Shown piece by piece: positions 45,901 to 64,000 of a DNA stretch of 64,000 nt. The translations under genes were made by a program, and so were the position numbers. Each line of letters starts with the position of its first letter. The first letter of the stretch is position 1. The notes under the pieces are model-generated. The model was not told the origin of the DNA, made no database searches, and saw only the letters and a program-made list of their open reading frames with translations. This DNA is from Candidatus Omnitrophota bacterium. Its GTDB lineage: Bacteria; Omnitrophota; Gorgyraeia; B26-G9. The stretch is taken from contig JBDRJV010000022.1 in the NCBI GenBank assembly GCA_043814605.1, positions 21,305 to 85,304 of the forward strand, read 5' to 3'.

Positions 45901-46935
45901 TTAAAAAAGCTTGATGTTATCTTTAAGCCAAGCATGTACATTTTTAAGCCCCACATTAACACTAGTTTCCGGAAACCAGTTTAATTCTTGTTTTATTCGC
46001 TTTATGTCTGTAATATAAACTTTTTGATCACAAATCCGGTCTTGGCCAAAACTAATGTACGGCTTGCGGCCTGTTTCTTGTTCTAATAATTTTATAAATT
46101 CAAGTAAAGATACAGAATTTTTTACTCCCCCTCCAATATTATATAATCTATATTCATATTTACTTTGAATAAATTTATCAAAAGCCAAAATTAAATTATC
46201 CACGTATAATAAATCTCGGACTTGTTTGCCATCCCCAAATATAGTGATTTTTTTTCCTAACAAATTAGCTAGCATAAACCAACTTACCCATCCCTGCTGG
46301 ACAAAACCAAATTGCCGGGGGCCATAAACACAACCTATTCTAAATATTGCTGCTTTCATCCCATAAAGTCTTGCATATCCCTGTACATACATTTCTCCGC
46401 TTAATTTACTGATGCCGTAAGGCGTATGCCCGCTTAAATCAACTGGTAATTTTTCATTTATTCCTTTAATGTTTTTAAAATCATAACGTGTTTTTAGCTT
46501 TTTTATAGGTTGAGCGCTGATATTTTTACCATACACATTATTGCTTGAACAATAAATAAATAACGGTTTGTTTTTTTTAATTTTTAAGCATTCCAGTACA
46601 TTTAAAGTGCCAAAAGCATTAATTGCAAAATCTTTTTGAGGATTATTTATCGAAGGAGAAATCCCGGGCTGTCCGGCAGCATGAATAACAACATCAACGC
46701 CGTTACCGATTGCCTTTAAAACATCTTTACTATTGCGTACATCACCTTTAACTCTGGTAATATTTTTAAATTTTCCTAAATAGTTCCAGGTATGTTCTAC
46801 TGTTTTTTTCTTTGAGCCAAATATTTTTGATCTGATTAAGCTATCTAAGATTATTACTTTTGCTTTTTTTTCAGCATAATATTGCGCACAATGTGAGCCG
46901 ATTAATCCGGCACCGCCGGTTATTAAAATTCTCAT
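45901..46935 (-). CDS. NAD-dependent epimerase/dehydratase (extended SDR), paralogous in type to the 41942 gene
   Basis: ITGGAGLIGSH, YGISKLSGEMY (YxxxK), and FGDGKQVRD. Confidence 0.8.
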   Translation of the reverse strand: MRILITGGAGLIGSHCAQYYAEKKAKVIILDSLIRSKIFGSKKKTVEHTWNYLGKFKNITRVKGDVRNSKDVLKAIGNGVDVVIHAAGQPGISPSINNPQKDFAINAFGTLNVLECLKIKKNKPLFIYCSSNNVYGKNISAQPIKKLKTRYDFKNIKGINEKLPVDLSGHTPYGISKLSGEMYVQGYARLYGMKAAIFRIGCVYGPRQFGFVQQGWVSWFMLANLLGKKITIFGDGKQVRDLLYVDNLILAFDKFIQSKYEYRLYNIGGGVKNSVSLLEFIKLLEQETGRKPYISFGQDRICDQKVYITDIKRIKQELNWFPETSVNVGLKNVHAWLKDNIKLF

Positions 46936-49553
46936 TGATCTCTCTGTCTGTATAACCTGTCTTGTTTTTCTAAACTAATTAGCCCGGCTTTTGTAAAAGC
47001 TTCTATTTTTACCAATTCTTGTTTATCAGTTTTATTAAACCACAAAATAATATCTGCTATTTTTTTATTCATATCCTTACCTTTAACAATCCCCTCTTTC
47101 CGTCTCAAACATTTATAAACTTGTTCATTAATCATAATTTCATTTTGTCTATCCACAACTAATTCTAATTGATCGTCTGTAATTTTTTTATTCATATCTT
47201 TACCTTTAACAATTCCTCCTTTTAATCTCCAGCATTTATAAACTTGTTCATTAATCATAATTTCATCTTCTCTATCCACAACTAATTCTAATTGATAGTT
47301 TGTTTTCCCTGGATTTAAATCTACGGATATTCTTTTATCAAGCCACAGTTTCTGACTGGAAAGGAAAAATACCGCGGAAATAGGGTCTTGGGTATAAGGC
47401 GTAATCTTCACTTGCCTGTCCTTTGTACTCATAAGGCCATTTTCTCTATCAAAAACCGCTGTTTTCTCTTTAATTTTATTTTTTACTTGTATTGATTCTT
47501 CATATTTGTAATTATAAAAATTGTTTATGTCGAACAAGGATTGCACTTGAGCTTTTCCATCAAAAAAACGCGAGAAGAAACTAGACGGGTAAACATTGGC
47601 CTCTATCCGCATTGTTCTAGTGCCATCCATTGGTTGGCCTTCTCCCAATTTAATATTAAGATGCAATGCCGGGATAAGCCCCATATATTTTATAATATAT
47701 TCAAAACTATCTCCTTCTTTAAAGTTAAAATTCATATTTAAAGCCGGCAATAAATCCGTTTTCTGATCCGGAGAGGAAATAACCGGGTCTTTATCAATAG
47801 TGACAGCGTCCGGATTAACAGGTTTTGACATCACTTTATAAACAGCTGTATTTCCAAAATCTCTTACGAATTTAAATCCAGGATTATTCTCTATATCCGG
47901 TACCTGACCTAAAACCCTTCCCCCTTCATAATTTAAATATTTATCTTTGTGCACCAGCACATAATCCGTGCCTAAAAACGACAATATGCCCGCTGTAGAA
48001 GAATCTTTTAAACCAATGATCTTCTGCATTACTTCATAGGCATATGTCTCCGGGATAGCCCCGTTAATTAATTTTTTTTGGTGTACCCGTTGATAAAATA
48101 ATATCGGACGGAAATCTGCCTCTATAGGATATTCCGCAACAACTGTATCTTCTGGTTGTAGTCTCAACCAATTATAGACTTCTGGTATACTCTGGGTATC
48201 TGTTATCGGTGACACATTTAAAAATTCAAAAAGCACTCCGCAACATAATAAGGTTACAACAACAAATTTCATTTTTTTACTGCTAAGCTTTTTTATAATA
48301 TTATTTAGTCCAAATCCGGCAAGTACACAAACAGCAATCATTACTACCCCACCCATACGTGCGTAATTACGAATCATCGGGAATATTTTAAATAAAAAAA
48401 ATGAAGGAAACGGGATAAAAAAAACATTTTTAATCCCCCAATAAGGGCTAAACGAACAAACCATAAAAGTAAATAAAGCAAAAACCCAAAAACAGATTAA
48501 AAAATCCGTTGCCGGATTTGATCGCCTGCTAATTCTTCTCTTTTTCCAGCTTTTATACCCCGCAAAAGCCAGAAAAATAGGGATAACTCCCAAATACAGA
48601 GACTGTTCCCCCCCGCTATTTTCACCATATAACGGCGTATCAACAAACACCTTGGTTATTTTTCCTAGTAATGGATGATACACTGTCGGAAGAAAATAGT
48701 TTAACGGCCGAGCAGCATCAGAAAAAAGCTGGCCAAAAGAACGGATAATCCCGGTTGTTTGGGCTTTACTTGAGCTGTAAATTACCATTTTTAGGTGACG
48801 CCAAATTTGAGGAAGCATTATCAAAGCAATAACCGTTAAACCCGCAATTGAAAGCTTCACGAACTGAAAAATTTCTTTTAACCTAACTTTTTGTTTTCTA
48901 AATACAGCATATCCAACATTAAAAACAAAAAATAATATAGTAAAGATACCCATGAAATAAACATAATAATAACTGCTAAACTGCCCGATTAATGCAAAAC
49001 AAACTCCGCAAATAAACGCGCTTCCATAAGTTCTTTTCTGATATAAGTTGAATAAGGAAATAATATAAAATAGCATCCAGTGCATATTGGATAAACAAAG
49101 ATGTTCCCAGGAACGAGCAAAATGGTAAGGGCTAAACATTAACACTAATCCCGAAAAAAAAGAAGCTAGACGATTTTTCGTGAAATAAAAAACAAGAGCA
49201 TACATCGCCAAGCCCGAAAGAAAAAAACTGCCTAATACCTGAATATTATACGCTGCTATCTCTCCCATTAAAATTGTTAAATACCTATTAAAAACTACCC
49301 AGACAGGATAAAGATGGGGATTATTCAAACCAAAAGGAGAAGATAAAATAGAAATAAAATCAGAAGGCAACCCTTTTAAGTAAGAATATTTCAACCACCA
49401 GAATTCCCAAATCCATGCTAACGAATCTGTGGCTGTGCCATAAATAGCCGAATTTAAACGAAAAATTACAGGAAAGGTAGCGCATATACTTAAAAATAGA
49501 TAAAGTAGTATAATAAAAATTTCTGCTTTAAAATTTTTTATCTTATTTTTCAT
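46932..49553 (-). CDS. Large polytopic membrane protein, GT-C-fold glycosyltransferase-like (ArnT/PMT/YfhO-type), with a C-terminal soluble region containing a 41-aa tandem repeat
   Basis: About 12+ TM helices with an acidic first loop (GTATDSLAWIWEFWW). The large C-terminal extracytoplasmic domain is followed by 2 x 41-aa repeats. Confidence 0.45.
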   Translation of the reverse strand: MKNKIKNFKAEIFIILLYLFLSICATFPVIFRLNSAIYGTATDSLAWIWEFWWLKYSYLKGLPSDFISILSSPFGLNNPHLYPVWVVFNRYLTILMGEIAAYNIQVLGSFFLSGLAMYALVFYFTKNRLASFFSGLVLMFSPYHFARSWEHLCLSNMHWMLFYIISLFNLYQKRTYGSAFICGVCFALIGQFSSYYYVYFMGIFTILFFVFNVGYAVFRKQKVRLKEIFQFVKLSIAGLTVIALIMLPQIWRHLKMVIYSSSKAQTTGIIRSFGQLFSDAARPLNYFLPTVYHPLLGKITKVFVDTPLYGENSGGEQSLYLGVIPIFLAFAGYKSWKKRRISRRSNPATDFLICFWVFALFTFMVCSFSPYWGIKNVFFIPFPSFFLFKIFPMIRNYARMGGVVMIAVCVLAGFGLNNIIKKLSSKKMKFVVVTLLCCGVLFEFLNVSPITDTQSIPEVYNWLRLQPEDTVVAEYPIEADFRPILFYQRVHQKKLINGAIPETYAYEVMQKIIGLKDSSTAGILSFLGTDYVLVHKDKYLNYEGGRVLGQVPDIENNPGFKFVRDFGNTAVYKVMSKPVNPDAVTIDKDPVISSPDQKTDLLPALNMNFNFKEGDSFEYIIKYMGLIPALHLNIKLGEGQPMDGTRTMRIEANVYPSSFFSRFFDGKAQVQSLFDINNFYNYKYEESIQVKNKIKEKTAVFDRENGLMSTKDRQVKITPYTQDPISAVFFLSSQKLWLDKRISVDLNPGKTNYQLELVVDREDEIMINEQVYKCWRLKGGIVKGKDMNKKITDDQLELVVDRQNEIMINEQVYKCLRRKEGIVKGKDMNKKIADIILWFNKTDKQELVKIEAFTKAGLISLEKQDRLYRQRDQ
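47052..47295. repeat. In-frame tandem duplication, 2 x 123 bp at about 90% identity, inside the 3' end of the GT-C-like gene
   Basis: Copy 1 is about 47052-47172 and copy 2 about 47175-47295. It encodes QLELVVDR(E/Q)xEIMINEQVYKCxRxKxGIVKGKDMNKKIxD twice. Confidence 0.8.
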
Positions 49554-49590: not shown

Positions 49591-50646
49591 CTACTCTTTT
49601 TTAAAAATTGACTGAAAAAACTTTATTGAAATACCACTCACTAAAAAAAAATAAGCAACTGTTCCGGCAGTATCCAGCCATTTCTTTAACCCAATACTCC
49701 GCAAAATTGCGCATAAAATAAGCCCTGACATAAATGCTACAAGACATTTATCAGAAAATTTACAATCTAAAACCCAAATTATTTGCTCTTTAATCCAAAG
49801 AAATACCTTATTTATAATATAAAATATTTTATTGAAAATTAAACTGTTATCTCCAATATTTCTTCTTCCAATATCATCTTTTAATTTATTTAATAACACC
49901 CATGTCAATAAATTTACAATCATATTTGCAAATGCAACATTGATACAAACAAATAAAAAAGCATACTTTATCTGCACCACCAATGAATACGGCCCTTTCA
50001 GAGAAATATACCCCAAAACTAAGCAGAAAAAAGCACAAAATATAAACGAAAAAATATTATTTAAAATACTCTGCTTTATAGATAGATTCAATACTATTAA
50101 TTCAAATAAAAGCATAATCCACCATAAAATTACTATAAAAAAGAAAAAAATAATTCCTGGTAACAAAACTTTTTTTAAATCATTATTTCGAAGGACTGAA
50201 TCACGAAGAGTCAAAATAATATTTTCATTATGCACTTGACCCAGAAAATTCTTCGTGCGAACCATCAAGTTTTTAGGATTATTCGGATAGAAATGAACCT
50301 GCAACTTATTATTACCTTCGACCATTATTTCTTTAGGAACATAATAATAACGCGACAGAATACAATTTTCCGAACTATTACTAATTCTAAGTTCAAGTTT
50401 ATTATTATTTAGTTTAGCCAGTTCCGCATCTGTATTTTTAGCATCGAATTTAAGCTGTAACAAATAATCACTGACCTTTGGCAAACTTATTATAGTCTCG
50501 AACACTTCAGAATTTACTAAAAAGATATCTTCTTTTTTTACAATATTCTCATGGATCCCTGATGAGCAAAGTAAAAAAAATGCCACAGTAAAAACTGTTG
50601 CAAAAATTATGCTCAAAACTAAACTTATTTTTCTAGTTCTTTGCAT
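49591..50646 (-). CDS. Hypothetical membrane protein
   Basis: 351 aa, an N-terminal TM, an extracytoplasmic domain of about 140 aa, then about 6 TM helices. No motif recognised. Confidence 0.35.
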   Translation of the reverse strand: MQRTRKISLVLSIIFATVFTVAFFLLCSSGIHENIVKKEDIFLVNSEVFETIISLPKVSDYLLQLKFDAKNTDAELAKLNNNKLELRISNSSENCILSRYYYVPKEIMVEGNNKLQVHFYPNNPKNLMVRTKNFLGQVHNENIILTLRDSVLRNNDLKKVLLPGIIFFFFIVILWWIMLLFELIVLNLSIKQSILNNIFSFIFCAFFCLVLGYISLKGPYSLVVQIKYAFLFVCINVAFANMIVNLLTWVLLNKLKDDIGRRNIGDNSLIFNKIFYIINKVFLWIKEQIIWVLDCKFSDKCLVAFMSGLILCAILRSIGLKKWLDTAGTVAYFFLVSGISIKFFQSIFKKE

Positions 50647-52564
50647 CTATAGCTCCTTTTTTCTTAATATCTAGATATTTTAAATAAAATAAACAAGCAA
50701 TAACTGCCACAAAAAATATTATTAATCCCAAATAATAAAGCAGCTGTGGCCAAAAATATATTATTATTGTAAAATTTTCATTCAAACCCAATTTACTCGG
50801 TTCTACCCGCCAGCAATTTGCATAACCATTAGCAAAATAGTGCGGTAACTTTAACGGCTTTTTAAATAATAACTTTACATCTTCAAAACTAAATTTATAT
50901 TCACCTCTTGATTCTTTTACATGTAAATGCGGATAGTCTGCTACTATTTCATTAAACTCCTCTGGCTTGTGAATAGAAACTTGTGACTCATACAGCTTCC
51001 ACTGTTCATGAAAACTTTCACTAAATACAAGCCAAAAAGGATAATTTGCTCCTTTAATATTAACTAAATATTTTACCGGATTTATTTTTTTAAAGATTAT
51101 TTCCGGCTCTTGAGTTATGAATTGTAAATTAGGAGTTACAACTGGTTCTAATATTACCCACTCTATTTCAATAATACTATTTTTTACTTTTTCATAATGA
51201 TGTTTTCCCTTTCTCAGATCAATTATCTTTTGCAAAATAATTTCCTGATCATCTATGTGTTTTTCCCAATTTTTAAAACTATTCAGGGAAACTTCCTCTT
51301 CATCTATTTTTAAAAAAACAGGATTAAATTCAGAAAGCAAAGAAGTAAATTTTTCTTTTGTTTTAAGAGCCTTTAAAGGATAAGGGAGCCCTTCACTGCT
51401 TCTATTCAACTGGAAATTCCCTAATTTCAATTCAAAATATTCTTTTTCAAGTAAAAGTTTTTTTAGTTTTACTTCCAGTACTAAGGTCATATACTTAGAC
51501 TTATCATCCTGAAATATATTATTTATATCAATTACTATATTGTCATCGTTTTTTTTGTATTGCTCCGGGGAGAGGCTGAACATCTCTACTTTATCACTTA
51601 TATCCTCACTCTTATGAAAGATGGCATAAACTCTTACATCATAGGCTTCTTGTCCGGCTGCTTCACAATCAAAGGAAAGAGAATCTATTTTTCGCAATTG
51701 TTCTTCAGAAAACTGGATATAAACCGATAGCTGATTATTCTCATCCTTAGGAGCTGTTCTGGACTCGAGGTCATGTTTGCTTTCAGTATCGTGATAACAT
51801 AAAATTTTAAACTTTTCGTTCTGTTTTAATAGGGTATATCCCATATTATCGCTTTGGATCATTAATTCTGGATCTATTTTTTGCCTTTTAAGAAACTGAA
51901 TAGACTTTTCATTATAAAATTTTAGATTTTTTAACCTGAATATATATATTTCATTATCAATTTCACTCATATTTTTATTAAAAGAATGAATAAAAAATAT
52001 TTTTCTTAATATAAAACCTTTCGACACTTCATTAACCGATAATAACTCTTTTTTAATTTTATCAAGAATATAATATTGGCTGAACGTATCTATTCTAACA
52101 TAGCCATCAACATCGTTATCTCCCATATAATCAATACCCAAATTAGCATATATGCGTTGATCATTTTTATTCGGAATTTCCGCTTCTATCTCTGAGAAAG
52201 GGAATTCCTCCAGATTAATTTCCACGGATCGGCTTAAAGCAATGGTATTTCCTCCCGATAATAAAATATCCGCAAATTCTTTACGCGGTAAGCATTTAAC
52301 AAATTCTTTTGATTCATTTAAAGAGGTTTTCTGCCCTGCTTTAAAAAAAGAATTAATATCTTCTTTAGAAATAAACTCAATTTCCCAGTTTTTTATCTCA
52401 TCTCTCCAATCTGCCACTTTATCTTGATAATATATTCTAGAGTTTACAAATTTAGAATTTAGCTTAATTTTTAAATTATAAGGTTCAGTTTCCTGAGCAA
52501 ATACAACCACAGGGAATAATAATATAATCAGTACTATTTTTCTGCAAAAATTATTTTTTTTCAT
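50633..52564 (-). CDS. Hypothetical secreted or membrane-anchored protein
   Basis: 643 aa, N-terminal signal peptide and a C-terminal TM anchor. No motif recognised. Confidence 0.35.
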   Translation of the reverse strand: MKKNNFCRKIVLIILLFPVVVFAQETEPYNLKIKLNSKFVNSRIYYQDKVADWRDEIKNWEIEFISKEDINSFFKAGQKTSLNESKEFVKCLPRKEFADILLSGGNTIALSRSVEINLEEFPFSEIEAEIPNKNDQRIYANLGIDYMGDNDVDGYVRIDTFSQYYILDKIKKELLSVNEVSKGFILRKIFFIHSFNKNMSEIDNEIYIFRLKNLKFYNEKSIQFLKRQKIDPELMIQSDNMGYTLLKQNEKFKILCYHDTESKHDLESRTAPKDENNQLSVYIQFSEEQLRKIDSLSFDCEAAGQEAYDVRVYAIFHKSEDISDKVEMFSLSPEQYKKNDDNIVIDINNIFQDDKSKYMTLVLEVKLKKLLLEKEYFELKLGNFQLNRSSEGLPYPLKALKTKEKFTSLLSEFNPVFLKIDEEEVSLNSFKNWEKHIDDQEIILQKIIDLRKGKHHYEKVKNSIIEIEWVILEPVVTPNLQFITQEPEIIFKKINPVKYLVNIKGANYPFWLVFSESFHEQWKLYESQVSIHKPEEFNEIVADYPHLHVKESRGEYKFSFEDVKLLFKKPLKLPHYFANGYANCWRVEPSKLGLNENFTIIIYFWPQLLYYLGLIIFFVAVIACLFYLKYLDIKKKGAIDAKN

Positions 52565-53282: not shown

Positions 53283-55019
53283 TTAATTACTAGAAACATA
53301 TATTCGCGGCAGAAAATCATCCTCGTTCTCATAAACCGTTATGCTGCCCAGGCTATAGGGCTGCATAAAACCGGTAAATATTATCTTCTTTTCCTCAATT
53401 GTTTCTTTCTCAAGGAATCCGTACCATGCGATCAAATCCTCATTCACAACAACCTGCCCTACATTATAAATACCTAAAACTTTTTTATAATTACTTAAGC
53501 CTATTCCTTTGTACAAAAGATTAAAATAATGATGCGTTCCAATAAACGGTTTATTAGTATTCTTTAGCACCGGATCCAATCCTGTATATTTTTTATTGTT
53601 ATAATTACTTAAGCACACCTGATAATTAGCTGTCCCCGGCAAGCTTAAAATCCGTTGTTCAAAATTTTTGCTATTTACAAATTCTCTAAACTGCTTATAT
53701 TCTGTCTTGTCTTTATATTTCCTTGAACCATAACCAAAATTCTTAATTTTATATTCAGGAATTATATTCCCCGTCAATAGCGGCACGGAACAAAATAGTA
53801 AATATAATGCAAAAATAAACGAAATAAATTTATAATGCCTGCGCTCTTTAATGTTATTCATTATAAATAATAATAAAATTGATAATATAAAAACATAAAG
53901 AATGCCGAATTTTTCTACCGGTGTTTTAAAAATTTTAAAATAAGGCACATGAATAAATAAAAAATTATAAATGCCCCCAAAAGGCGCAGCATTACCCTTT
54001 ACGAAAAATAATACAATCAACAAAATTCCTAATGTGCCCATGGGAAGCAAATTTCTTTTTTTTCGGTCATAAATAAACAAAAAATAGAATATTATTACAA
54101 ACATTGGCACTAAGGTAATTATCCCCGCAAATACCGTGTTATACCAATATGCAAAAAAATCATAAGATGAGTCATCGGAAATCAATAAAGTCAAGGAAAA
54201 CATTTTAGCAATAATAGGATAAAAATCAGTTACTACAGTATTTAACAGGTCTTTAGCTATAGATAAAGGATATATACTCTTCCCCACAGATTTAAGATTC
54301 AAATAAAGGGTCATTATCCACCAGGAATTAAATACGAAAAATGATACTAATAAAATAACAAGTTTCTTAACTATCTGGATTAAAATAATTTTTTTGTTGT
54401 GATAAAAAGAACCCAAAACCACTGAAAGCAAAACGGAAAAAAATATAATCGCAAAAAGCGGCGGGTTTGAAAAGGAAAAAGAAAAGCAAGCTGAAATAAA
54501 ACCGAAGAAAAAACATAGCCTAAAATTATCATTATAATATTTTAGAATGAGCCATAAAAATAAAGGCATTACTCCTATGGAAAAAACATTGTTTTGATTA
54601 ATACAAATCAAGTGATATAAAATAAAAGGATTAACCACATAAAAAAAAGATACCATAAATGCAACAAAAGGTCTTGCTTTTAATAGCCTTGATAGCATGA
54701 ACATTGCAATAAATGGCAGAAAATATATTGAAAATATCATTGTAAAATTAGCGGCAACAACACTACCCGTAAATTTTTCAATAAGCGAAAGAATAACAAT
54801 ATTTAAAGCAAAAGCATGAGGAGACATGTTTATAACCCCTGCACCGAAAGTAGAATACCAAGCAAAACAGGAATTTTTAAGGTGAGTTGTAAAATCCAAA
54901 ACAAAATCTGCTTCTCCCCCAAGGATAAGACAGCCATCAAAATAATATGGCAATAATGCCAGGAAAAAAATAGCTCCTCCTAGCATCAAAAAAACATTAT
55001 AGGCATTAATTCTTTTCAT
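53283..55019 (-). CDS. Polytopic membrane protein, possible GT-C-fold glycosyltransferase or polymerase
   Basis: 578 aa, about 12 TM helices, an acidic first loop (LILGGEADFVLDF), and a C-terminal extracytoplasmic domain. Confidence 0.4.
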   Translation of the reverse strand: MKRINAYNVFLMLGGAIFFLALLPYYFDGCLILGGEADFVLDFTTHLKNSCFAWYSTFGAGVINMSPHAFALNIVILSLIEKFTGSVVAANFTMIFSIYFLPFIAMFMLSRLLKARPFVAFMVSFFYVVNPFILYHLICINQNNVFSIGVMPLFLWLILKYYNDNFRLCFFFGFISACFSFSFSNPPLFAIIFFSVLLSVVLGSFYHNKKIILIQIVKKLVILLVSFFVFNSWWIMTLYLNLKSVGKSIYPLSIAKDLLNTVVTDFYPIIAKMFSLTLLISDDSSYDFFAYWYNTVFAGIITLVPMFVIIFYFLFIYDRKKRNLLPMGTLGILLIVLFFVKGNAAPFGGIYNFLFIHVPYFKIFKTPVEKFGILYVFILSILLLFIMNNIKERRHYKFISFIFALYLLFCSVPLLTGNIIPEYKIKNFGYGSRKYKDKTEYKQFREFVNSKNFEQRILSLPGTANYQVCLSNYNNKKYTGLDPVLKNTNKPFIGTHHYFNLLYKGIGLSNYKKVLGIYNVGQVVVNEDLIAWYGFLEKETIEEKKIIFTGFMQPYSLGSITVYENEDDFLPRIYVSSN

Positions 55020-55053
55020 TTTAATTTTGTATATAAAATTGCGATTGGTTATT

Positions 55054-55827
55054 TTACCTGCTAATGCTTTTATAGCATTGATAAATGATTACATAAGATT
55101 TTCTTATACATTCCACATTCTTACTTATTTGGTAAGGTGTCTCTATTTTTTTCCTTTTCCCAATAATCATATTTTTTAATGGTAGCGGCATGATTCTTGC
55201 AATTTTCCTTACAATTTCTATTTGAGATAAAGTGCTAATTAATTTAGCATGAAAATCAGTCTTTATTTCCTCCTCATTAAACTGTCCAAATAATAAAACA
55301 TTATCAAATTGTAACTTTAATATTCCAAATAAATCTTCTGGATAATATTCATACTTATGAAAAGGAAAAACTGGCTTATTTTTATTATGCGAAGTAATAT
55401 ATTTATTAACTGTTGCTAAAAAAAGAATCCCTTGCGGCTTTAGATAATTTAAAAATTTTTTAATCAAAACTATACCCTCATCTCGGCTTATATGCTCTAT
55501 CATTTGAGAACAAACTATTACGTCAAACTTACAGGAAAGATTTAAAGCAGTAGTAAATTCTAAATGACCAATATCCTTAAAAAACAAAGCTGCTTGATTA
55601 ATGACTTTCGCATTAATATCGTAGCCGACAACTTTATTTTGAGTAAACCGAGAAAGATATTCACTACCATAGCCTCCGGCACAACCATAATCCAACACTT
55701 GTGATTGCTTATTTATAAATTTTGCAGACATCTCGTAAACTATTTGATGCACTCTATCGGCTTGTTCGAACTTCCTATTAATAATTGGCCTTTCTCCGGT
55801 ATTCAACACCATTACTCCTCCCATCAC
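55054..55827 (-). CDS. Class I SAM-dependent methyltransferase
   Basis: Motif I VLDYGCAGGYGSEYL and a downstream acidic motif. Confidence 0.75.
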   Translation of the reverse strand: MMGGVMVLNTGERPIINRKFEQADRVHQIVYEMSAKFINKQSQVLDYGCAGGYGSEYLSRFTQNKVVGYDINAKVINQAALFFKDIGHLEFTTALNLSCKFDVIVCSQMIEHISRDEGIVLIKKFLNYLKPQGILFLATVNKYITSHNKNKPVFPFHKYEYYPEDLFGILKLQFDNVLLFGQFNEEEIKTDFHAKLISTLSQIEIVRKIARIMPLPLKNMIIGKRKKIETPYQISKNVECIRKSYVIIYQCYKSISR

Positions 55828-55861
55828 TAAAACATTTTCTTCCTACATTTTGTTATTTATT

Positions 55862-57301
55862 TTATGACAACTGCCCCTTGGTCCCACCCCTCATAAATAC
55901 ATAAAAAGCTATTTTAAACAGTTTTAAATCCTCTTTAAATCTTCGCGGGATTAAAAACCAGATTCTTATTCTGCGCAACAACCACATAGGGTTAATAAAA
56001 AATCTTCTGTACGCCATCTTTTTAATATTTACTAAATCCTCCAAAGTAGATCCCTTTGGAATAAATAAAGGCCAAATCCCGCGAAAACCTTTTCCTAATT
56101 CACCGCTAGCATATTTATCGATAATATCCTCGGGTATCATCTTGTGTTTTATCGCGTAATTAAAAACTTCTGTACCGGGAAAAGGCATGGTGATATGAAT
56201 CCCGATTACATCAGCTTTAACCTTACTGCCGATTTTAACCGTATCTAGCATTTCCTTTCTGGTCTCTGTAGGAAAACCAACCATTAAAAATAAATTGCTC
56301 ATAATCCTATATTTTCTGCATAATTCAACCGCTTTGGTAATTTGCTGATCATCAACTTTTTTCTTAATAATTTCGTTTCTGATCCTTTCATTCCCAGACT
56401 CAACTCCAAAATAAAGTTCATAACAGCCTGCTCTTCTTAATGCTTTTGCCACTTCATCATCAACTACACTTGCCCTAGTTGATGCAATAAACTTTATTTT
56501 AAGCTTCCGGTCAATAACTTCCTGGCAAAAATCCATGATATATTTTTTATTTAAAGTAAAACAATCATCATTAAACCCGTAACTACCCTGGCATTGGTCA
56601 TAAACCTGCTCCATCTCATCAACAATATTCTTTGCAGAGCGCAAGCGTAACTTAAATCCTATTACTGGGATACAGCAAAAAATACATTTAAAAGGGCAAC
56701 CTCTTGAGCCTAATATCCCTGCTGAAGGAACCTCGTACTTCATCTGTTCTTCACGTAGATATATTTCCGGCTTGATCAGATGCCTTGCCGGAAAAGGCAA
56801 GCTATCTAAGTCTTCTGTGATTTTCCCGATTATCGGTCCCCTTACCTTCTCTCCCTTTTTAATTTTACTTACAATCTCCTCAAAAGTATGCTCTCCCTCT
56901 CCGATAATCCCGAAATCAAAAACAGGAAATCTTTCCAGAAATGTTTTATCGCAACATAAATGCACCCCGCCAAGGCCTAAGTGAAAACTATCGCCGAATT
57001 TTTCCTTTATTGCTTTAGCCAAACTAACAGCTGAAGCAATACTCGTTGTCATTGAAGAAATCCCAACTACCATTGGTTTTTCATTTTTAATTGTTTGCAA
57101 TATATCCGGCAAGGTTATTCCTTCCGGAGCCACATCAATGATTTTTACCGAATGCCCAAATCTCTCCAAGAATGCGGCCATGTAAAGAATACCTGTGGGG
57201 TAAAAAGATTTTTCATCTCCCCCATGGCCTCTAAACTTTTCTTTTTCTTTTTCATCTTTATAAAGAATAATTGGACTGTGTATTAGAATAACATCAACCA
57301 T
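55862..57301 (-). CDS. B12-binding radical SAM protein (class B rSAM)
   Basis: N-terminal cobalamin-binding domain, then GSRGCPFKCIFC (CxxxCxxC). Confidence 0.8.
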   Translation of the reverse strand: MVDVILIHSPIILYKDEKEKEKFRGHGGDEKSFYPTGILYMAAFLERFGHSVKIIDVAPEGITLPDILQTIKNEKPMVVGISSMTTSIASAVSLAKAIKEKFGDSFHLGLGGVHLCCDKTFLERFPVFDFGIIGEGEHTFEEIVSKIKKGEKVRGPIIGKITEDLDSLPFPARHLIKPEIYLREEQMKYEVPSAGILGSRGCPFKCIFCCIPVIGFKLRLRSAKNIVDEMEQVYDQCQGSYGFNDDCFTLNKKYIMDFCQEVIDRKLKIKFIASTRASVVDDEVAKALRRAGCYELYFGVESGNERIRNEIIKKKVDDQQITKAVELCRKYRIMSNLFLMVGFPTETRKEMLDTVKIGSKVKADVIGIHITMPFPGTEVFNYAIKHKMIPEDIIDKYASGELGKGFRGIWPLFIPKGSTLEDLVNIKKMAYRRFFINPMWLLRRIRIWFLIPRRFKEDLKLFKIAFYVFMRGGTKGQLS

Positions 57302-57489
57302 CTTCCACCTAAATATATTTTTTAAACTTCAATCAAACCAATACGTTACTGATTTTAACAGATAATAGAGTTAAGTCAAGCTTACTCCTAGCAGTTTTAG
57401 CTTTTACATTTTTTCCTCCCATAATCTTCAACCCAAAAAAATTTATTTATAATTAAGCAATATTATAAAAATCCTTATTAAATTCTTAC

Positions 57490-58188
57490 TTATACAAAAA
57501 AATTGTGTTCTGGAGTTAGCAGAGAGACCTTTTTAATACCATTTATATTATTCAAAACACTAAGCATTTGCTCAAAACTGTCCTTCTGCACTTTTGCGTG
57601 TAATGAATATGTTATTTCTTTGATTTTTGATTCACTGTCTGTAAAACTTGACCTAAGTTCATATTTAATATTTTTCTGGCTAAATAAATCTCTAATCATG
57701 TTTTCTGCTTTTAAACTTAGTTGTAAATCAATATATAAAACCATGATGTAATCAGAATTAATTGTTTTGTCAAAATTTATTTTGGTTAAAATTATCACGA
57801 AACATCCTATAAAAAACGCGCTCACAGCAGCGGTTAAATAATTACCCGAACCAACAGCTAAACCTTCGGCAATCACCCAGAACAAATAAGCCATATCTTT
57901 TGTATCCTTGATAACTGTCCTAAATCTTATAATCGAAAGAGACCCAATCAACCCTAAAGATAAAGCAATATTCGAACCGATTACCATCATAATAACAGAA
58001 ACAATAACATTAATCATTATCAGCGTAAAAGTAAACGAGGATGCGGAAGAAAAGCCTCTATGCGTACGCTTATAGATAAAACAAATAAAAAGCCCTAAAA
58101 AAAACGAGATTGCTAATGTAAAAATAATTGTCAATACCGAAAGATCTTTTGAAACTGCTAAACTTAATTTTTCCAAAAATACATTCAT
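57490..58188 (-). CDS. DUF4956-like membrane protein
   Basis: 232 aa, N-terminal TM helices, and the conserved SLGLIGSLSIIRFRTVIKD segment. The family assignment is from memory. Confidence 0.5.
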   Translation of the reverse strand: MNVFLEKLSLAVSKDLSVLTIIFTLAISFFLGLFICFIYKRTHRGFSSASSFTFTLIMINVIVSVIMMVIGSNIALSLGLIGSLSIIRFRTVIKDTKDMAYLFWVIAEGLAVGSGNYLTAAVSAFFIGCFVIILTKINFDKTINSDYIMVLYIDLQLSLKAENMIRDLFSQKNIKYELRSSFTDSESKIKEITYSLHAKVQKDSFEQMLSVLNNINGIKKVSLLTPEHNFFV

Positions 58189-58201
58189 TTTTCTACCCTT
58201 T

Positions 58202-58957
58202 CTATTTTAAAAAAAGCGAACTATTGCAAGCTTGTTTTTGCGCGCTTAATAAATATTTGCTGATTGAACTTTGTTGTAATGAATACTTTTTAATCAAATA
58301 CACAAACCAAAAAGGAATATAATCCTGACATTTAAGTTCTAAAATCTGAACTTCTTCAGATAAAACCGGAATATGCGGTTTTATCTGTATGTCTCCAAAA
58401 AATCTACTGCAATATGTTTTAGCATCAATAGTAACACGAATACCGTCATCATTTTTAGCAAAAAAAGCATTCCGGGAATAATCAATTCGGATAAAAGGAT
58501 AATAATGTTCTGCTTTTCTTAACTTTATAAAATAAGATATAAGGGGATCAGTATCATCTAGTTGACTGCTGTTAAAATCTGATTTTAAAAGATTTTGCAC
58601 ACATTCATAGGACATCAGAATTGTCTTTTTAATAACCTTATCTAATCTTCTATATTTTAATTCAACTTTAATTGGACCAGTCACATTTAACGGCCGATAA
58701 AACCGCACCCGCAGTTTCAGCCTGTCACTTTCGCCTTTTAGTTTATCAAAATATGACTTTAACCCTAAAGTTTCAAAATAAACAGAAGAAATTTGATAAA
58801 CAGAATCTTCGCCTTGTCCATATTTATCTTTTTTTGTAAATTTTTTCAAATCGTTTATAAAATTAGCTCTTTCATGCTGCGGCAAATAATACTTATATTC
58901 AATTCTCGAACGCGTTTTCATCATAAACTCACCTTTATTACTCAATATCCATGCCAA
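58202..58957 (-). CDS. VTC-domain protein (polyphosphate-polymerase-like, CYTH/triphosphate-tunnel superfamily)
   Basis: RIEYKYYL...VYQISSVYFET...YFDKLKGESDRLKLRVRFY matches the bacterial VTC/CYTH-like core. Recall-based. Confidence 0.55.
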   Translation of the reverse strand: MAWILSNKGEFMMKTRSRIEYKYYLPQHERANFINDLKKFTKKDKYGQGEDSVYQISSVYFETLGLKSYFDKLKGESDRLKLRVRFYRPLNVTGPIKVELKYRRLDKVIKKTILMSYECVQNLLKSDFNSSQLDDTDPLISYFIKLRKAEHYYPFIRIDYSRNAFFAKNDDGIRVTIDAKTYCSRFFGDIQIKPHIPVLSEEVQILELKCQDYIPFWFVYLIKKYSLQQSSISKYLLSAQKQACNSSLFLK

Positions 58958-61900
58958 ACTGAGTCTGCGGCTTTTCCATGGTTAAAAGATATTCTGAATT
59001 AGAATTCAATATCATCATCCCTATGGGTATAGATTTTATCGCTATTGGCATTTTTAATTTATATTTTTCCATCAGAACAGTTACTATTTCCTTATTTCCC
59101 AGTGCACCTAGTATATTATCAATGTGATAATTACCCCTAGCATTTTTCTTAAGCAAAAAACCTTTCGAAATATTTCCTTCTTTACTTGTAATATTATTAC
59201 CCAGAAGCTTCGCATATTCATATCCGTTACTGCTTAGACTTTCTGCCTTTCCTTCAATTATTTCTTTATATTTTTTCCTTTTTCCCTTTTTTTTATTTTT
59301 ATTGTTTTTTAACTTAGGTTCTTTAATTAAAATTTTAGCTTTTTTATTTTTAAGCTCAAAAGCGGAATTTGAGACAATACAAACTGAAGTTTCTTTTTTT
59401 ACACCTTTATCCTCTCTATTTTCTATACCAAAATCCAACTTATTCCCTACCACTAAACTATTATAAACAATCAGGTTGCCTCCACCAAAAAATCTTTTCT
59501 TACAATACGCAGTTACCCCAACATTATTTTCCACAATCGTATTATTAATTAACCGTATTTGCGATAAGTCTTTCACGGCTACTCCCAGGTTACAGCCGAT
59601 AATTATATTATTAAATACTTCATCCTGTGACTGCTCTCCAAAACTAATCCCTTTGTCGCCTGATTTTTCAATCCTGTTATTAAAAATAAATGTTTCTGAA
59701 CCAGAAATATCAATACCATCATTCCCATTATCATAAAAATAACACCCCTCAATCCTACTGCCTGCTTTCATGCAATCAAAATCTACAGCATCACAGTTAT
59801 TTTTATAAAAATAACTGTTTTTTATGACTGATGTTCCATATTTAAAATTTAAAGCATCATCCCCCTTTTTTTTACTTGCATATCTGAAAATACAATTTTC
59901 AACTTTTACATCGCAATAATAGCCAGAAAGCATCCCTGAAAAATAAGTGCCATTAATATTTGCTTCACTGCCATTCTCAAATATACAATTCTCAAAATTT
60001 CCCGAAGCCTTGCTCTGAATAAGCCCAACCACACCCCATGATTTTTTACTTTCACTATTCGTAAACACAATTGGCTCAGATTGGCTACCGATAACTTGTA
60101 AGCAACCATATGAAACTAAAGAAATTCCTTTTTTAAATTTAAATGTAGTTCCTGGCTTAATTTCAAAAATATATCCTTTAGGCACAATAAGATTTTCTTC
60201 GATTGTATATACGCCCTTTTTGATCACAACTAAATACTCTGCCTTGATATCATCAATATTAAATGTACTTTTTAACTGTTGCCTGAAACGTTCAATAACC
60301 ACTGGTTGGCTTCCAATATCCTGCCATTTTCCATAATCCATATCCAACAATTCACAACCTATATTTTCCAAAAAAACATTGGTAGTACTAACCTGAGCAT
60401 TATCCTGCACAATTAAAAAATATGGGGCGTTTTTAACTGTAATATTAGTTAAAGCCATTTTTGTATCTACTCCTTTAAACCAAAAAATTCTGCTGGCAAT
60501 ATCATTTGCTTTTATCCCTGATATTTCACCCACACAATTCCCGGCTTTGATTGAATAAAGATTAGAGCTAAAAGTAAGCTCAGATAATTTCACCCTATTT
60601 TCATTCATTACTATGGCTTTTTTTGATCCGGAAAAATTAGAATTATTAATAACTAAAACAGAATCTGGATCACTTTTTATATCAATATTATTTAAATCAA
60701 AAGTAGAGTTATTTATAAACGAAACAGTCTCTTTTCTTAACTCCAGTCCTGTTCCAGAGCCAACCCCATTAACAATAACTTCATCAAAAATCACGTTTTT
60801 AAAAACTGCTATCCCTGCCCAAATTTGGTTATACGCAATAAACTGGGATTTTTTTGCTAAGATATATCCTGCCTCAAGTTTCTTCACTGGCAAAAATTGC
60901 AACTTTACCCCTTCGCCTAAAATCAGTAAGTCATTTTTGCCAAGTATAATATCTTCCATCACAATCAATTGCGAATTCCCGGGGATGAAGTATATTTTAG
61001 TATCGGTATTAAAATACTCTTTTAACTCAACGGTGTCATCCATTTTTTTGACCATGCTTTGCAGTTGTGTATATGTTGCCAGCTCTTTTAATTTTTTTTC
61101 CGATATTTTATATTTTTGAATTTCTTTCATTGTCAGCTGCGGCTTTTCAATTTGCGGTTGATATTCTATAAAAACTTCCCCCTTAACATTATCCATACGC
61201 ATCCCCTTATAATAAAGCACAACTTCGTAAGTTAAGGGTATAGGAGACTGCTTAATTGTTTCAGAAAAATCAATTACATATTCTCCGGGTTTATTTTCCC
61301 GGCTTAAACCATTACTAAAAACCTTTACATCCCAATCACTGTCTTCAGGATTCAAAATGCTAGCTTGCGGATATTTCTGTGAATCACTTTTTACAAAAGA
61401 AACCGTCAATTTTTTTGAAAAAATATTATCCTCTGAAGCAGCGATATTCACAATCAATTTAGGCTTTGGATCATATACAGGAATAATTGGCTCTCCGGTT
61501 ACCGCATTCCTGAGAGTTAATTTAAGATTATCTTTACTGTTAATATCCTTTCCCTGGTATTCATAAAAATATAAATACCGGGTCGGTTCTATAATATTCT
61601 GAGTCACTGCTGGTCTCCTAATCCTTATCCATTCTGGTAATAATAAGTTTTTTTCTTTATGCCACCAAGGGGGATTACTCAGCTGCCAGTCTGAAGTAAC
61701 ATTTTTATCTTTATATTCTACCTTATCAAGATAAACACCAACTGGAGAAGGTACATTTAAAACTAAATATATCTTCTGCGATATTTCATTATTTAAAATC
61801 TGCCACTTTAAAGTACAGCTGGATAATGCTCCTTTAATATAACTTTGTCTTATTGTTTCAAAACTTTTAATCTGTTCCACAGATTGGATAAAATTATTAA

Positions 61901-63020
61901 TATCCTGCGGCACACTCACCACTGAACCAATATCCAGTAATTCTTCTTGCAATACTTGAGAATATGCCAAAATTTCATCATAGATATAACTGATTTTTCT
62001 TTTCCCCAAAATCTCATTACATAAAAATTGAACATCTTGAAAATAATTATGCATCCAATAAGGATTACGCATAAAATATTCTGAAATATAATTCAAGTTA
62101 TAAGTAATCGGATTTTGAGTGATAAAATTCATACCCATTAAATCATTAAGAGCTAAATTAAAAGTTGTTTCGTTTTTCTCCTCTTCTTGGGCAACAAATA
62201 TTAAATTATGCGTAGTCATATGACAAGAATTAAATATCGTATTAAGAGCTAAATATCTTGTATAATCTACGTCATCTATAGCTATTGATTGCTGCAAACT
62301 CCTGGGAATAGAAGAAAGCGTTACTACTTCTCTTAATAAATCCATAAATTCCGATTTTATTTTGCCCTTTTTCCCTTTTAATAAATTACTTTTCCAATAA
62401 TATTTAAGTAGCCTTTCTGAATCTGGATAGGCAAAAAATCCCCATATAACATCCAGATTATCTGTAAAAGAATTTCTAAAATTATCATCCCATAAAATGC
62501 GATGCCCCAGGCTTTTACCTGAACTATCTGTAACATTCAACAATCTTGTTCTCGGAACTAGTTCATAATATTGTGAAGCCAGAGTGTAAACTACAAATTC
62601 ACTAAACACCTGTTCGTATGGGACAAAAGGATCGGTAATATTCCAAAATCCAAATACTTCTGAACCTAAAGCTTTCAATTTAAAATTATCTTCGTTTTCT
62701 ATATTGAATTTTACAGATCTATTTTTCCAGGAATGGAAATGCGGCGATGACCAACCGTTAAATTTAGCCTTACATTCTTTATTTAAATAAGGATCATAAA
62801 AATAGAACCAGTTAAAAACCGGTCGAAAATATGTTCCTGCCTTAGGAATTTCATATTCCATCATTTCTTCTATTTGCATAGGAATGGTTGGAACTATAAA
62901 TTTTTTGACGGCAAAGTCTATGTTATTAGTAATATTTTCATCATTCGCATTTCCATCACTCAAGAAAATGAACAGATTAATCGCAAATATTACAAAACAT
63001 ATTCCTCTTTTTATATTCAT
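58938..63020 (-). CDS. Giant secreted protein: CotH-kinase-like N-terminal domain, right-handed parallel beta-helix repeats, a K-rich linker, and a C-terminal domain
   Basis: Signal peptide MNIKRGICFVIFAINLFIFLSDGNA. The N-terminal 400 aa contain HNLIFVAQEEEKNETTFNLALNDLMGMNF, which resembles the CotH catalytic region. The central NxxIxxNxxxG-type repeats (e.g. NNRIEKSGDKGISFGEQSQDEVFNNIIIGCNLGVAVKD) are typical of pectate-lyase-fold beta-helices. Confidence 0.45.
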   Translation of the reverse strand: MNIKRGICFVIFAINLFIFLSDGNANDENITNNIDFAVKKFIVPTIPMQIEEMMEYEIPKAGTYFRPVFNWFYFYDPYLNKECKAKFNGWSSPHFHSWKNRSVKFNIENEDNFKLKALGSEVFGFWNITDPFVPYEQVFSEFVVYTLASQYYELVPRTRLLNVTDSSGKSLGHRILWDDNFRNSFTDNLDVIWGFFAYPDSERLLKYYWKSNLLKGKKGKIKSEFMDLLREVVTLSSIPRSLQQSIAIDDVDYTRYLALNTIFNSCHMTTHNLIFVAQEEEKNETTFNLALNDLMGMNFITQNPITYNLNYISEYFMRNPYWMHNYFQDVQFLCNEILGKRKISYIYDEILAYSQVLQEELLDIGSVVSVPQDINNFIQSVEQIKSFETIRQSYIKGALSSCTLKWQILNNEISQKIYLVLNVPSPVGVYLDKVEYKDKNVTSDWQLSNPPWWHKEKNLLLPEWIRIRRPAVTQNIIEPTRYLYFYEYQGKDINSKDNLKLTLRNAVTGEPIIPVYDPKPKLIVNIAASEDNIFSKKLTVSFVKSDSQKYPQASILNPEDSDWDVKVFSNGLSRENKPGEYVIDFSETIKQSPIPLTYEVVLYYKGMRMDNVKGEVFIEYQPQIEKPQLTMKEIQKYKISEKKLKELATYTQLQSMVKKMDDTVELKEYFNTDTKIYFIPGNSQLIVMEDIILGKNDLLILGEGVKLQFLPVKKLEAGYILAKKSQFIAYNQIWAGIAVFKNVIFDEVIVNGVGSGTGLELRKETVSFINNSTFDLNNIDIKSDPDSVLVINNSNFSGSKKAIVMNENRVKLSELTFSSNLYSIKAGNCVGEISGIKANDIASRIFWFKGVDTKMALTNITVKNAPYFLIVQDNAQVSTTNVFLENIGCELLDMDYGKWQDIGSQPVVIERFRQQLKSTFNIDDIKAEYLVVIKKGVYTIEENLIVPKGYIFEIKPGTTFKFKKGISLVSYGCLQVIGSQSEPIVFTNSESKKSWGVVGLIQSKASGNFENCIFENGSEANINGTYFSGMLSGYYCDVKVENCIFRYASKKKGDDALNFKYGTSVIKNSYFYKNNCDAVDFDCMKAGSRIEGCYFYDNGNDGIDISGSETFIFNNRIEKSGDKGISFGEQSQDEVFNNIIIGCNLGVAVKDLSQIRLINNTIVENNVGVTAYCKKRFFGGGNLIVYNSLVVGNKLDFGIENREDKGVKKETSVCIVSNSAFELKNKKAKILIKEPKLKNNKNKKKGKRKKYKEIIEGKAESLSSNGYEYAKLLGNNITSKEGNISKGFLLKKNARGNYHIDNILGALGNKEIVTVLMEKYKLKMPIAIKSIPIGMMILNSNSEYLLTMEKPQTQFGMDIE

Positions 63021-63042
63021 GACCCAATCCTATAAAACATTA

Positions 63043-63972
63043 TTATTGATTAAAAGCTATTTTTTTTATAACATAAGTATTAATCTCAGCTTTGCCCAGG
63101 ACAAATAATGCCATTAACAACCGGATAATTAAGCCAAATGGTATTAACAAAACTGCCAAAATACCATTCACCACAGGATTTTTACCCGCAAAGCACATAT
63201 AAAAACTAAACGCTAGATCCTGAAAATAATCAATCGCATTACTCTTGTATTCGACTATTTTTAAGTTATACTTAGCTAATAAAATTTTCATGCCCTCATA
63301 GCCATAAAAAAATAAATGCCGAGGAGTATCCAAATGGAACCAGAATTTTCTCGTTAGATTAAAACCGAGACTATTTCTATTAGGTATTTCTAAAATCAAG
63401 ACACCGTTTTTAGCCAATAAGCAAGAAAGTCCTTTCATGAAACTATCCACATTATCAATATGTTCAAATACATGCCACATAACAATAATATCAAACTCAC
63501 CAAATTCATTTTTGCTACAAATACTATTGTCTATTTTAGTATTATAAATTTCTATATCTTGATAATTATCTTTTATATATTGATAGGCCTGCTTGTTTAT
63601 TTCAATGCCGGATTTTTGGAAAGTTTTAGGTAAAGAGTGCAAAAAGCCTCCCCAGCCACAACCAACTTCCAAAATTTTCATACCTTTAGGATGATATTGT
63701 TTTATTAATTGCAATCTTCTGTGAAAACTAATATTCGAAAGCCACGCTAAGATAGACTTGATCAGAAAATTATAGGCTGGCGTATTATAATAACCATCTA
63801 AATAATACTTTTCATAATATCCGTTATTTATTTCAACAGCCGTAAATGTAACCTTGCAGTTTAAACATTCAAGAATTTCAAAACCCTCTTGGCTCAAAAG
63901 CTCTCGGCCATGTCTGTTTTCTGCTACAAACAATAATTTAGTTTTTTCACTTAAACAATACTTACACTTCAT
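63043..63972 (-). CDS. Class I SAM-dependent methyltransferase with an N-terminal 4-Cys zinc ribbon
   Basis: CKYC...CLNC ribbon, then motif I ILEVGCGWGGFLH and a Type 11/12 methyltransferase fold. Confidence 0.7.
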   Translation of the reverse strand: MKCKYCLSEKTKLLFVAENRHGRELLSQEGFEILECLNCKVTFTAVEINNGYYEKYYLDGYYNTPAYNFLIKSILAWLSNISFHRRLQLIKQYHPKGMKILEVGCGWGGFLHSLPKTFQKSGIEINKQAYQYIKDNYQDIEIYNTKIDNSICSKNEFGEFDIIVMWHVFEHIDNVDSFMKGLSCLLAKNGVLILEIPNRNSLGFNLTRKFWFHLDTPRHLFFYGYEGMKILLAKYNLKIVEYKSNAIDYFQDLAFSFYMCFAGKNPVVNGILAVLLIPFGLIIRLLMALFVLGKAEINTYVIKKIAFNQ

Positions 63973-64000
63973 TTTCCCCTAAAACTTTCGATAACTAATA

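Follow-up and report, generated by a model that had tools for sequence, protein, structure and literature searches.

The 64,000-nt stretch of Candidatus Omnitrophota DNA studied here (hereafter the window) carries three tightly packed minus-strand open reading frames (ORFs), which encode a giant exported protein with an N-terminal domain predicted to have the CotH fold (58938-63020), a protein of the VTC family, related to polyphosphate (polyP) polymerases (58202-58957), and a membrane protein of the DUF4956 family (57490-58188). We consider it very probable that this locus is a divergent, deep-branching member of a CotH-VTC-DUF4956 cell-envelope module. The most useful new fact, as judged from sequence comparison, is an invariant Asp-to-His replacement in the predicted CotH-fold domain, which is genetically tied to a polyP-polymerase-like enzyme. 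As a first-pass annotation of this DNA had described, the three genes are consecutive and lie on the minus strand, and each of them is an ORF with the boundaries given above.

Conservation of the three-gene order

We recovered the loci of the ortholog of the giant gene and of seven more distant family members (L001, L004-L010). Given that L009 and L010 are copies of one contig, the comparison comprises eight independent loci (the window, L001 and L004-L009). The giant gene is directly followed by the VTC gene in 8/8 of them, with a spacing that ranges from a 17-nt overlap to a 13-nt gap, and a DUF4956 gene follows the VTC gene in all five loci with enough DNA to show it. In the window, 13 nt separate the stop codon of the giant gene from the ATG of the VTC gene, and another 13 nt separate the VTC and DUF4956 genes. 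This order recurs at protein identities of 24-64%, and the synteny in eight independent loci led us to reject a chance adjacency of three genes. The co-occurrence of the triad in related genomes, for which the first-pass annotation had proposed to screen, is thus borne out.

Moreover, a shorter protein with CotH and beta-helix regions (P0003), which has a weak match to Pfam CotH (29 bits), is encoded between the other two genes in another locus (L003), in the order DUF4956, CotH/beta-helix, VTC. Its beta-helix (aa 597-848) aligns with the second beta-helix of the giant protein at 30% identity (E 9e-26), and that of the bona fide CotH protein P0004 aligns at 26%; judged from these alignments, beta-helix 2 is homologous to the beta-helix of CotH-containing proteins. 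The position of the P0003 gene between DUF4956 and VTC genes, together with this homologous beta-helix, supports the assignment of the window locus to the module. A scan of genome contigs returned one relative, and a scan of metagenome contigs returned none.

Identity of the N-terminal domain

The giant protein is identical to P0001, an entry on a 221-kb contig that is named 'MAG: right-handed parallel beta-helix repeat-containing protein [Candidatus Omnitrophota bacterium]', MAG standing for metagenome-assembled genome. An AlphaFold2 (AF2) model of residues 36-412, built from an 11-sequence alignment, reached a predicted local distance difference test (pLDDT) score of 77.7 and a predicted template modelling score (pTM) of 0.83. 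When this model was compared with PDB by Foldseek, the top two matches were the Bacillus cereus CotH structures 5JDA and 5JD9 (E 5e-9 and 9e-9, probability 1.0), with template modelling (TM) scores of 0.62/0.65. The next matches, HipA/HipT and Fam20C, had E values of 0.01 or higher.

The signal in profile comparisons was fainter. The family member P0007, which is identical in this region to the protein encoded in L004, passes the Pfam CotH model, with 24.5 bits against a gathering score of 23.8 over profile positions 145-322, and a further member (P0006) reaches 16 bits against the same gathering score. Compared one-to-one with P0004, the hidden Markov model (HMM) of the N-domain family scored 18 bits, and an hhalign comparison of the family with a 120-sequence CotH profile was collinear over 135 columns (E 0.0024, probability 12%). 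A second hhalign comparison, with a 3-sequence CotH alignment, was weak (E 0.034) and was used for residue mapping only, cross-checked with the 120-sequence profile. When the giant protein and each of its thirds were scanned with Pfam and NCBIfam at E<=10, no CotH emerged, and only chance matches were returned (e.g., TcdA_TcdB_pore and LytB_SH3). For residues 31-400, a phmmer search of PDB yielded nothing beyond chance matches to streptavidin, each 37 residues long, and the 11-sequence family profile found nothing in PDB below E 0.36.

The structural model and these alignments lead us to the conclusion that the N-terminal domain shares the fold of CotH and is remotely homologous to it. The resemblance to CotH kinases put forward in the first-pass annotation holds for the fold and, by way of P0007, for the family, while the protein itself gave no match to the PF08757 profile. 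The family is very small, since an exhaustive HMM search with residues 36-467 over 1.84 billion representative proteins returned 19 matches, 13 of them at E <1e-10; most of the matching proteins are 1210-1270 aa long.

A histidine at the position of the catalytic aspartate

In Bacillus subtilis CotH, the variants D228Q and D251A are catalytically inactive (PMC7821199). The active-site segment of B. cereus CotH reads NFD224-GFVH-N229-YALY ... IPW-D247-YD, and that of the window protein reads NSC-H267-MTT-H271-N272-LIFV ... LALN-D293-LMG. In all three alignments, which run collinearly through the catalytic loop, H267 falls on the catalytic Asp (D228 in B. subtilis, D224 in B. cereus), while N272 is aligned with B. 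cereus N229 and D293 with B. cereus D247, the DFG-like Asp of the 'PWD' motif that corresponds to B. subtilis D251. The Asn is presumed, by analogy with protein kinases, to be a metal ligand. With only 25-56% identity in this domain, all 11 family members nevertheless carry H267, N272 and D293, and candidates for the ATP-binding Lys are conserved as well (K116, which is invariant, and K86, which is nearly so).

The catalytic residues that the first-pass annotation had singled out for inspection therefore behave differently from one another: the D228 position is His267 throughout the family, whereas neither the Asn nor the second essential Asp (D251) has been lost. The invariance of the three residues at such a low identity argues that the site has been remodelled, with His in place of the general-base Asp, and has not decayed, and hence for a selected function. 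Thus, the replacement of the catalytic Asp makes a classical ATP-dependent Ser kinase activity unlikely, and the conservation of the site means that a purely structural role is not implied either.

The VTC and DUF4956 proteins

The family assignments of the two smaller proteins in the first-pass annotation were confirmed by Pfam (Table 1). The VTC protein scored 110.7 bits against PF09359 (cut-off 23), over profile positions 2-230 of 235. The most likely start of its gene is the ATG at 58924, not the ORF end at 58957, because the Shine-Dalgarno sequence AAGGTGAG precedes this ATG and the ortholog aligns from residue 12. In yeast, the VTC complex makes polyP from ATP in the tunnel of the triphosphate-tunnel (TTM) domain and feeds it into a membrane channel, and Vtc4 R264A/R266A/E426N is catalytically impaired (PMC9911596). 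In a weak PDB match to yeast Vtc4, an R-V-R of the window protein was aligned with R264/R266, and its invariant E-x-K strand (ILELK) is the likely equivalent of E426, by motif position only. Across the eight loci, the VTC motifs R.E.K, R.K.R.R.Y, E.K and SKY are invariant; given that these tunnel motifs are kept, the enzyme of the window looks intact.

The DUF4956 protein also has weak matches to MgtC. By hydropathy it is polytopic: hydrophobic blocks at residues 8-41, 48-87 and 115-140 precede a polar, soluble C-terminal domain of about 90 aa. The DUF4956 proteins share the invariant motif LSI.RFRT.IK.

Architecture of the giant protein

The giant protein is composed, in this order, of a signal peptide or anchor, the CotH-fold domain, two beta-sandwiches, two tandem beta-helices and a K-rich tail (Table 1). 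Its sole hydrophobic segment is N-terminal (K4 and R5, then residues 7-20), which predicts that most of the protein is located beyond the cytoplasmic membrane; a basic-then-hydrophobic N-terminus is found in every family member. In a second AF2 model (m34428dbbc039; residues 414-1360, mean pLDDT 74), a helical linker connects the beta-sandwiches with beta-helix 1, and a short helical linker connects the two beta-helices. The Lys-rich stretch already noticed in the first-pass annotation is real, and the roughly 110 aa behind it form a poorly conserved tail; residues 1193-1360 are unmodelled. Within the family, the K-rich tail is restricted to the window protein and its 52%-identical ortholog (P0002).

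Within the giant protein, Pfam and NCBIfam detect only the beta-helix/NosD region at residues 1063-1210. The repeats of beta-helix 2 carry D-x-[IV]-D and GDK motifs, and P0002 has a weak Pect-lyase_RHGA_epim match at its residues 786-847. A Foldseek search with the C-terminal half returned two-domain PL6 alginate lyases, a GH55 glucanase, phage tailspikes, AlgG and NosD, at 8-13% identity. On the basis of these models, the beta-helices are assigned to a polysaccharide-binding or -cutting fold class, from which no specific activity follows. The single long central beta-helix that had been proposed is thus of the polysaccharide type, as stated, but it is actually made up of two tandem domains, which extend from the centre into the C-terminal half. 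The fusion of CotH to a beta-helix had moreover been called unusual, which proved incorrect: at least 197 clusters (90% identity) are related to P0004, and PF08757 and PF13229 are both present in 118 of the 120 such clusters listed, many of which are annotated as 'CotH kinase family protein'. A reading of the beta-helix as a phage tailspike was rejected, as the surroundings consist of chromosomal housekeeping and envelope genes, with no phage genes.

Table 1. Features of the three-gene locus and of its immediate neighbours in the window.
Feature	Position	Strand	Evidence
Giant exported protein, 1360 aa	58938..63020	-	ORF; AF2 models
Putative signal peptide or signal anchor, aa 1-25, MNIKRGICFVIFAINLFIFLSDGNA	62946..63020	-	Hydropathy
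Predicted CotH-fold atypical-kinase-like domain, aa 36-412	61785..62915	-	AF2 and Foldseek
Predicted active-site segment H267-x3-H271-N272 ... D293	62142..62222	-	hhalign and HMM alignments
Two predicted beta-sandwich domains, aa 414-618	61167..61781	-	AF2, all-beta, mostly pLDDT 75-90
Predicted right-handed beta-helix 1, aa 676-893	60342..60995	-	AF2 pLDDT ~90, regular short strands
Predicted right-handed beta-helix 2, aa 930-1191	59448..60233	-	Pfam Beta_helix PF13229 E 2.7e-16, NosD; AF2 pLDDT ~90
Lys-rich low-complexity stretch, aa 1224-1252	59265..59351	-	17 K/R in 29 residues; pLDDT <40
VTC/TTM domain protein, 240 aa from ATG 58924	58202..58924	-	PF09359 E 1.1e-31
DUF4956/MgtC-like membrane protein, 232 aa	57490..58188	-	PF16316 E 3.7e-17, 63 bits, cut-off 30.6
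SAM-dependent methyltransferase	63043..63972	-	Methyltransf_23 E 3.7e-18; 22 nt upstream of the giant gene
B12-binding radical SAM enzyme	55862..57301	-	B12-binding and Radical_SAM matches; 188 nt downstream of the DUF4956 gene
Second SAM-dependent methyltransferase	55054..55827	-	Methyltransf_23 E 1e-14

Possible roles of the module

Related gene sets are known from pel loci. Whitfield et al. 2020 described contiguous genes for CotH, a 'poly-phosphate polymerase', DUF4956 and DUF4832 beside pelDEA(DA)FG in streptococci, clostridia and bifidobacteria (PMC7112168). In Streptococcus intermedius, SIR_1594, SIR_1593 and SIR_1592 form the CotH-like/VTC/DUF4956 set at the pel locus; SIR_1594 is reported to keep the catalytic residues, and the DUF4956 homolog is described with an ACT-like tail (PMC12345266). 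Deletion of the CotH-FN3 or the DUF4956 gene alters Pel levels and aggregation, with shifts of the Pel amounts in opposite directions, and the authors regarded the mechanism as unknown and did not find the three-gene synteny outside pel loci (PMC12345266).

For the module of the window, we tentatively propose polyP export coupled to phosphotransfer, by analogy with the yeast complex, as a possible mechanism to which we would give rather less than even weight. At the cytoplasmic face of the membrane, the VTC protein would polymerise polyP from ATP. The DUF4956 protein would dock the VTC protein and pass the chain outward, as the Vtc transmembrane domains do in yeast. In the ATP-poor space beyond the membrane, the giant protein would hold a surface or periplasmic glycan on its beta-helices, and the CotH-like pocket formed by His267, Asn272 and Asp293 could bind the phosphate polymer and/or transfer phosphate to the glycan or to an envelope protein. 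A bolder version, which we regard as speculative and quite unlikely, makes the triad an extracytoplasmic system of polyP-driven phosphotransfer, in which the His-variant domain would use polyP in place of ATP, possibly through a phospho-histidine, to phosphorylate the surface polysaccharide held by the tandem beta-helices or to attach polyP to it. If this were true, a kinase-fold enzyme would have adapted to an ATP-free compartment, and bacterial VTC/DUF4956/CotH neighbourhoods in general would gain a function.

Several points weigh against the assignment to the module or against the mechanism. The giant protein itself fails the Pfam CotH model PF08757, both as a whole (E<=0.01) and with residues 1-500 (E<=10), and the links to CotH at the sequence level are weak, as the hhalign values above illustrate. 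The catalytic Asp is absent, so that the N-terminal domain could be a pseudokinase. The structural matches of the beta-helices are generic at their low identity, and they therefore do not distinguish glycan binding from cleavage. A pore made of DUF4956 and a contact between it and the VTC protein are conjectural, and the authors of the S. intermedius study suggest that polyP may remain cytoplasmic (PMC12345266). Finally, the role of bacterial VTC/DUF4956/CotH sets is stated as unknown (PMC7112168; PMC12345266), in agreement with the first-pass annotation, which had called it unresolved.

The alternative that fares best, although we consider it rather unlikely, is that the giant protein is an adhesin or a glycan-active enzyme whose beta-helices would act on a surface polysaccharide as a lyase, hydrolase, epimerase or binder, with the CotH-like domain as a dead pseudokinase that binds a ligand or partner. 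VTC and DUF4956 would then merely be co-regulated proteins for intracellular phosphate or polyP handling. This would account for the replaced catalytic Asp, the position of which is occupied by Ser in 119 of 119 related Flavobacteriales proteins, and it fits the best matches of the C-terminal half (PL6 alginate lyases, GH55 glucanase, tailspike depolymerases and AlgG) as well as the many invariant Asp, Lys and Glu residues of beta-helix 2. However, the invariance of His267, Asn272 and Asp293 at 25-56% identity would be unusual for a site free of chemistry, and the tight, often overlapping coupling of the giant and VTC genes in 8/8 loci argues for a shared process. Moreover, the Flavobacteriales Ser variants, which may be true pseudokinases, are not linked to VTC or DUF4956.

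It is improbable, in our view, that the giant protein is a classical secreted ATP-dependent kinase of the CotH/Fam20C kind, which would act on Ser/Thr of envelope or matrix proteins with His267 as the general base and the beta-helices for localisation. The nearest folds are indeed CotH and then Fam20C or HipA, and the Asn and Asp that bind the metal are still present. Catalytic residues are predicted for the S. intermedius homolog, and CotH has coat proteins as its substrates, outside the context of the mother-cell cytoplasmic membrane (PMC7821199). In contrast, the Asp equivalent to D228 is absent, and a D228Q mutant is inactive; the periplasm or exterior has no known ATP source; and the constant presence of a polyP-polymerase-like gene and its membrane partner would be left unexplained.

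Equally low in our estimate stands a regulatory module, in which the VTC/TTM protein would be a triphosphatase or nucleotide-signal enzyme and DUF4956, MgtC-like and with an ACT-like tail, a metabolite sensor, both tuning the neighbouring glycan synthesis or export, with the giant protein as the effector. The TTM/CYTH superfamily includes triphosphatases and cyclases. The weak MgtC matches of DUF4956, the ACT-like tail described for its homolog and the opposite shifts of Pel amounts upon deletion in S. intermedius also speak for such a role; nevertheless, the Pfam match is specific to the VTC polymerase family and full length (E 1e-31), the basic tunnel residues including the R-x-R pair are kept, and signalling itself is conjectural.

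Genomic surroundings

The window has a G+C content of about 34%, and its genes lie almost all on the minus strand. ORFs of at least 120 aa are almost exclusively found on this strand over positions 1-64000, GC skew is negative in each 2-kb bin, and the cumulative GC skew declines steadily to -6.06. This strand bias and the steady skew place the window inside a single replichore with a strong gene-strand bias.

The two methyltransferases and the B12-radical SAM (S-adenosylmethionine) enzyme that had been named as flanking genes are supported by Pfam matches (Table 1). The methyltransferase upstream of the giant gene is 25% identical to a methyltransferase of the related locus L004, and the B12-radical SAM enzyme is 41.5% identical, over its full length, to that of L006. 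The B12-radical SAM gene possibly has its own promoter, judged from a promoter-like site at 57379-57352. Over 54800-64000, promoter- and terminator-like sites were not enriched over shuffled sequence, and the limits of the operon therefore rest on gene spacing.

The window also encodes two NAD-dependent epimerases/dehydratases, ManC, a UbiA prenyltransferase, an EamA protein and several polytopic membrane proteins without a Pfam family. Between 41942 and 55019, we observed the UbiA prenyltransferase (44503-45369), the EamA protein, the two epimerases/dehydratases and a second B12-radical SAM enzyme (43070-44536). The polytopic proteins without a Pfam family include 53283-55019, with at least 10 hydrophobic segments, and 49591-50646, while the polytopic protein at 46932-49553 carries DUF3108. 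The C-terminus of the ORF at 50633-52564 is 30% identical to the C-terminus of a GT-C_AftD protein, the gene of which overlaps the giant gene in L009. The content of this region hints at a glycan pathway from lipid-linked sugars by GT-C enzymes. None of the roughly 45 window ORFs scanned with Pfam gave a match recognisable as a Pel biosynthesis protein, although the existence of a Pfam model for each Pel protein was not checked by accession.

Comparable genes stand beside the giant-family gene elsewhere: L006 has the orthologous B12-radical SAM gene, a second radical SAM gene, epimerases, a GT4 glycosyltransferase and a methyltransferase, and L004 has a methyltransferase and a GT4 enzyme. The link to an adjacent glycan locus that the first-pass annotation suggested is therefore plausible, with epimerase, GT4, GT-C, B12-radical SAM and methyltransferase genes recurring as neighbours. 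In L007, a nucleoside diphosphate kinase gene (225-809) lies divergently, just upstream of the giant-family gene; this could be a coincidence or a link to nucleotide or phosphate supply.

Farther away in the window, a type II secretion/type IV pilus set (8905-16242) comprises T2SSF, T2SSE, a secretin and a PilM-like gene. The secretin gene indicates that the organism has an outer membrane (diderm), and large secreted proteins might be exported through this set. A ParA/MinD-type ATPase (AAA_31, E 7e-53) fused to a CBM48/AMPK glycogen-binding module is encoded at 29402-30553, a few genes from a GH57 branching enzyme and a DUF4912/Glucodextran_B protein (23448-25028, 25274-26704) on the same strand; this fusion might be an ATPase that positions glycogen granules. 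A 1303-aa protein (31907-35818) has a transglycosylase domain at residues 434-574 as its sole Pfam match, and its other ~1100 residues have none.

Implications

Bacterial VTC/DUF4956/CotH sets are widespread, and they occur beside biofilm-polysaccharide operons in streptococci, clostridia and bifidobacteria. The loci analysed here suggest that the module extends, in a strongly diverged form, to uncultured diderm lineages and to sites other than pel loci, and that the VTC/DUF4956 partnership persists even though the CotH-like domain has diverged past detection by Pfam. In the present branch, a strictly conserved His replaces the classical catalytic Asp, while the presumed metal ligands remain. 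Taken together, the divergence, the kept partnership and the Asp-to-His replacement argue against a simple 'secreted Ser kinase' and make polyP, or some other donor than ATP, a candidate to consider. As the organism is uncultured, the finding is of limited practical value.

Comparison with known systems

The tandem right-handed parallel beta-helices of the giant protein resemble those of the two-domain beta-helix enzymes (PL6 7DMK/5GKD, GH55 5M5Z, the HK620 tailspike and AlgG), but with 8-13% identity, E values no better than 9e-6 and no assignable catalytic motif, the likeness extends to the fold class only.

The Flavobacteriales proteins with CotH and Beta_helix domains (and LTD), such as P0004, share the N-terminal CotH domain and a homologous beta-helix with D-x-[IV]-D/GDK repeats, and the catalytic Asp is likewise missing. 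Unlike the window protein, they have a clear Pfam CotH match (E 6e-49), are shorter (800-1000 aa) and possess a single beta-helix. In three loci (L002 8001-12271, L011 8001-12935 and L012 8001-12157), a shorter second CotH gene directly follows, and no VTC or DUF4956 gene was found near them. The Ser variant and the second CotH protein may form a pseudokinase/kinase pair, a possibility raised by the sequences.

With the Bacillus CotH Ser kinase (5JD9/5JDA), the N-terminal domain shares the overall atypical-kinase fold as modelled, the H-N motif and the Asp of the 'PWD' strand (D251). It differs in its identity of 12%, in the missing Pfam match and in the His at the position of D228; moreover, the window protein is exported and fused to glycan-type domains, and its host is not spore-forming.

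The yeast VTC complex (Vtc4 with Vtc1/2/3) likewise combines a TTM/VTC catalytic domain with a conserved basic tunnel and a genetically tied small polytopic membrane protein. In the window, however, the VTC protein has no SPX domain and its catalytic domain is a separate soluble protein, whereas DUF4956 shows no sequence relationship to the Vtc transmembrane domains. Translocation is hypothetical here.

The pel-associated set is composed of the same three adjacent families, namely a secreted CotH-like protein that carries an additional extracellular module at its C-terminus, a soluble VTC/TTM protein and a DUF4956/MgtC-like membrane protein, in a setting that is also polysaccharide-related. 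The window differs in having no recognised pel genes and no DUF4832 glycoside hydrolase gene, in its host, which is a diderm Omnitrophota MAG and not a Gram-positive bacterium, and in a CotH-like domain that is beyond Pfam detection and carries His for the catalytic Asp. The extracellular module comprises two beta-sandwiches and two beta-helices (~800 aa) as modelled, in place of a single FN3 domain. The three-gene synteny of the present loci thus provides a case outside pel loci, at a great evolutionary distance.

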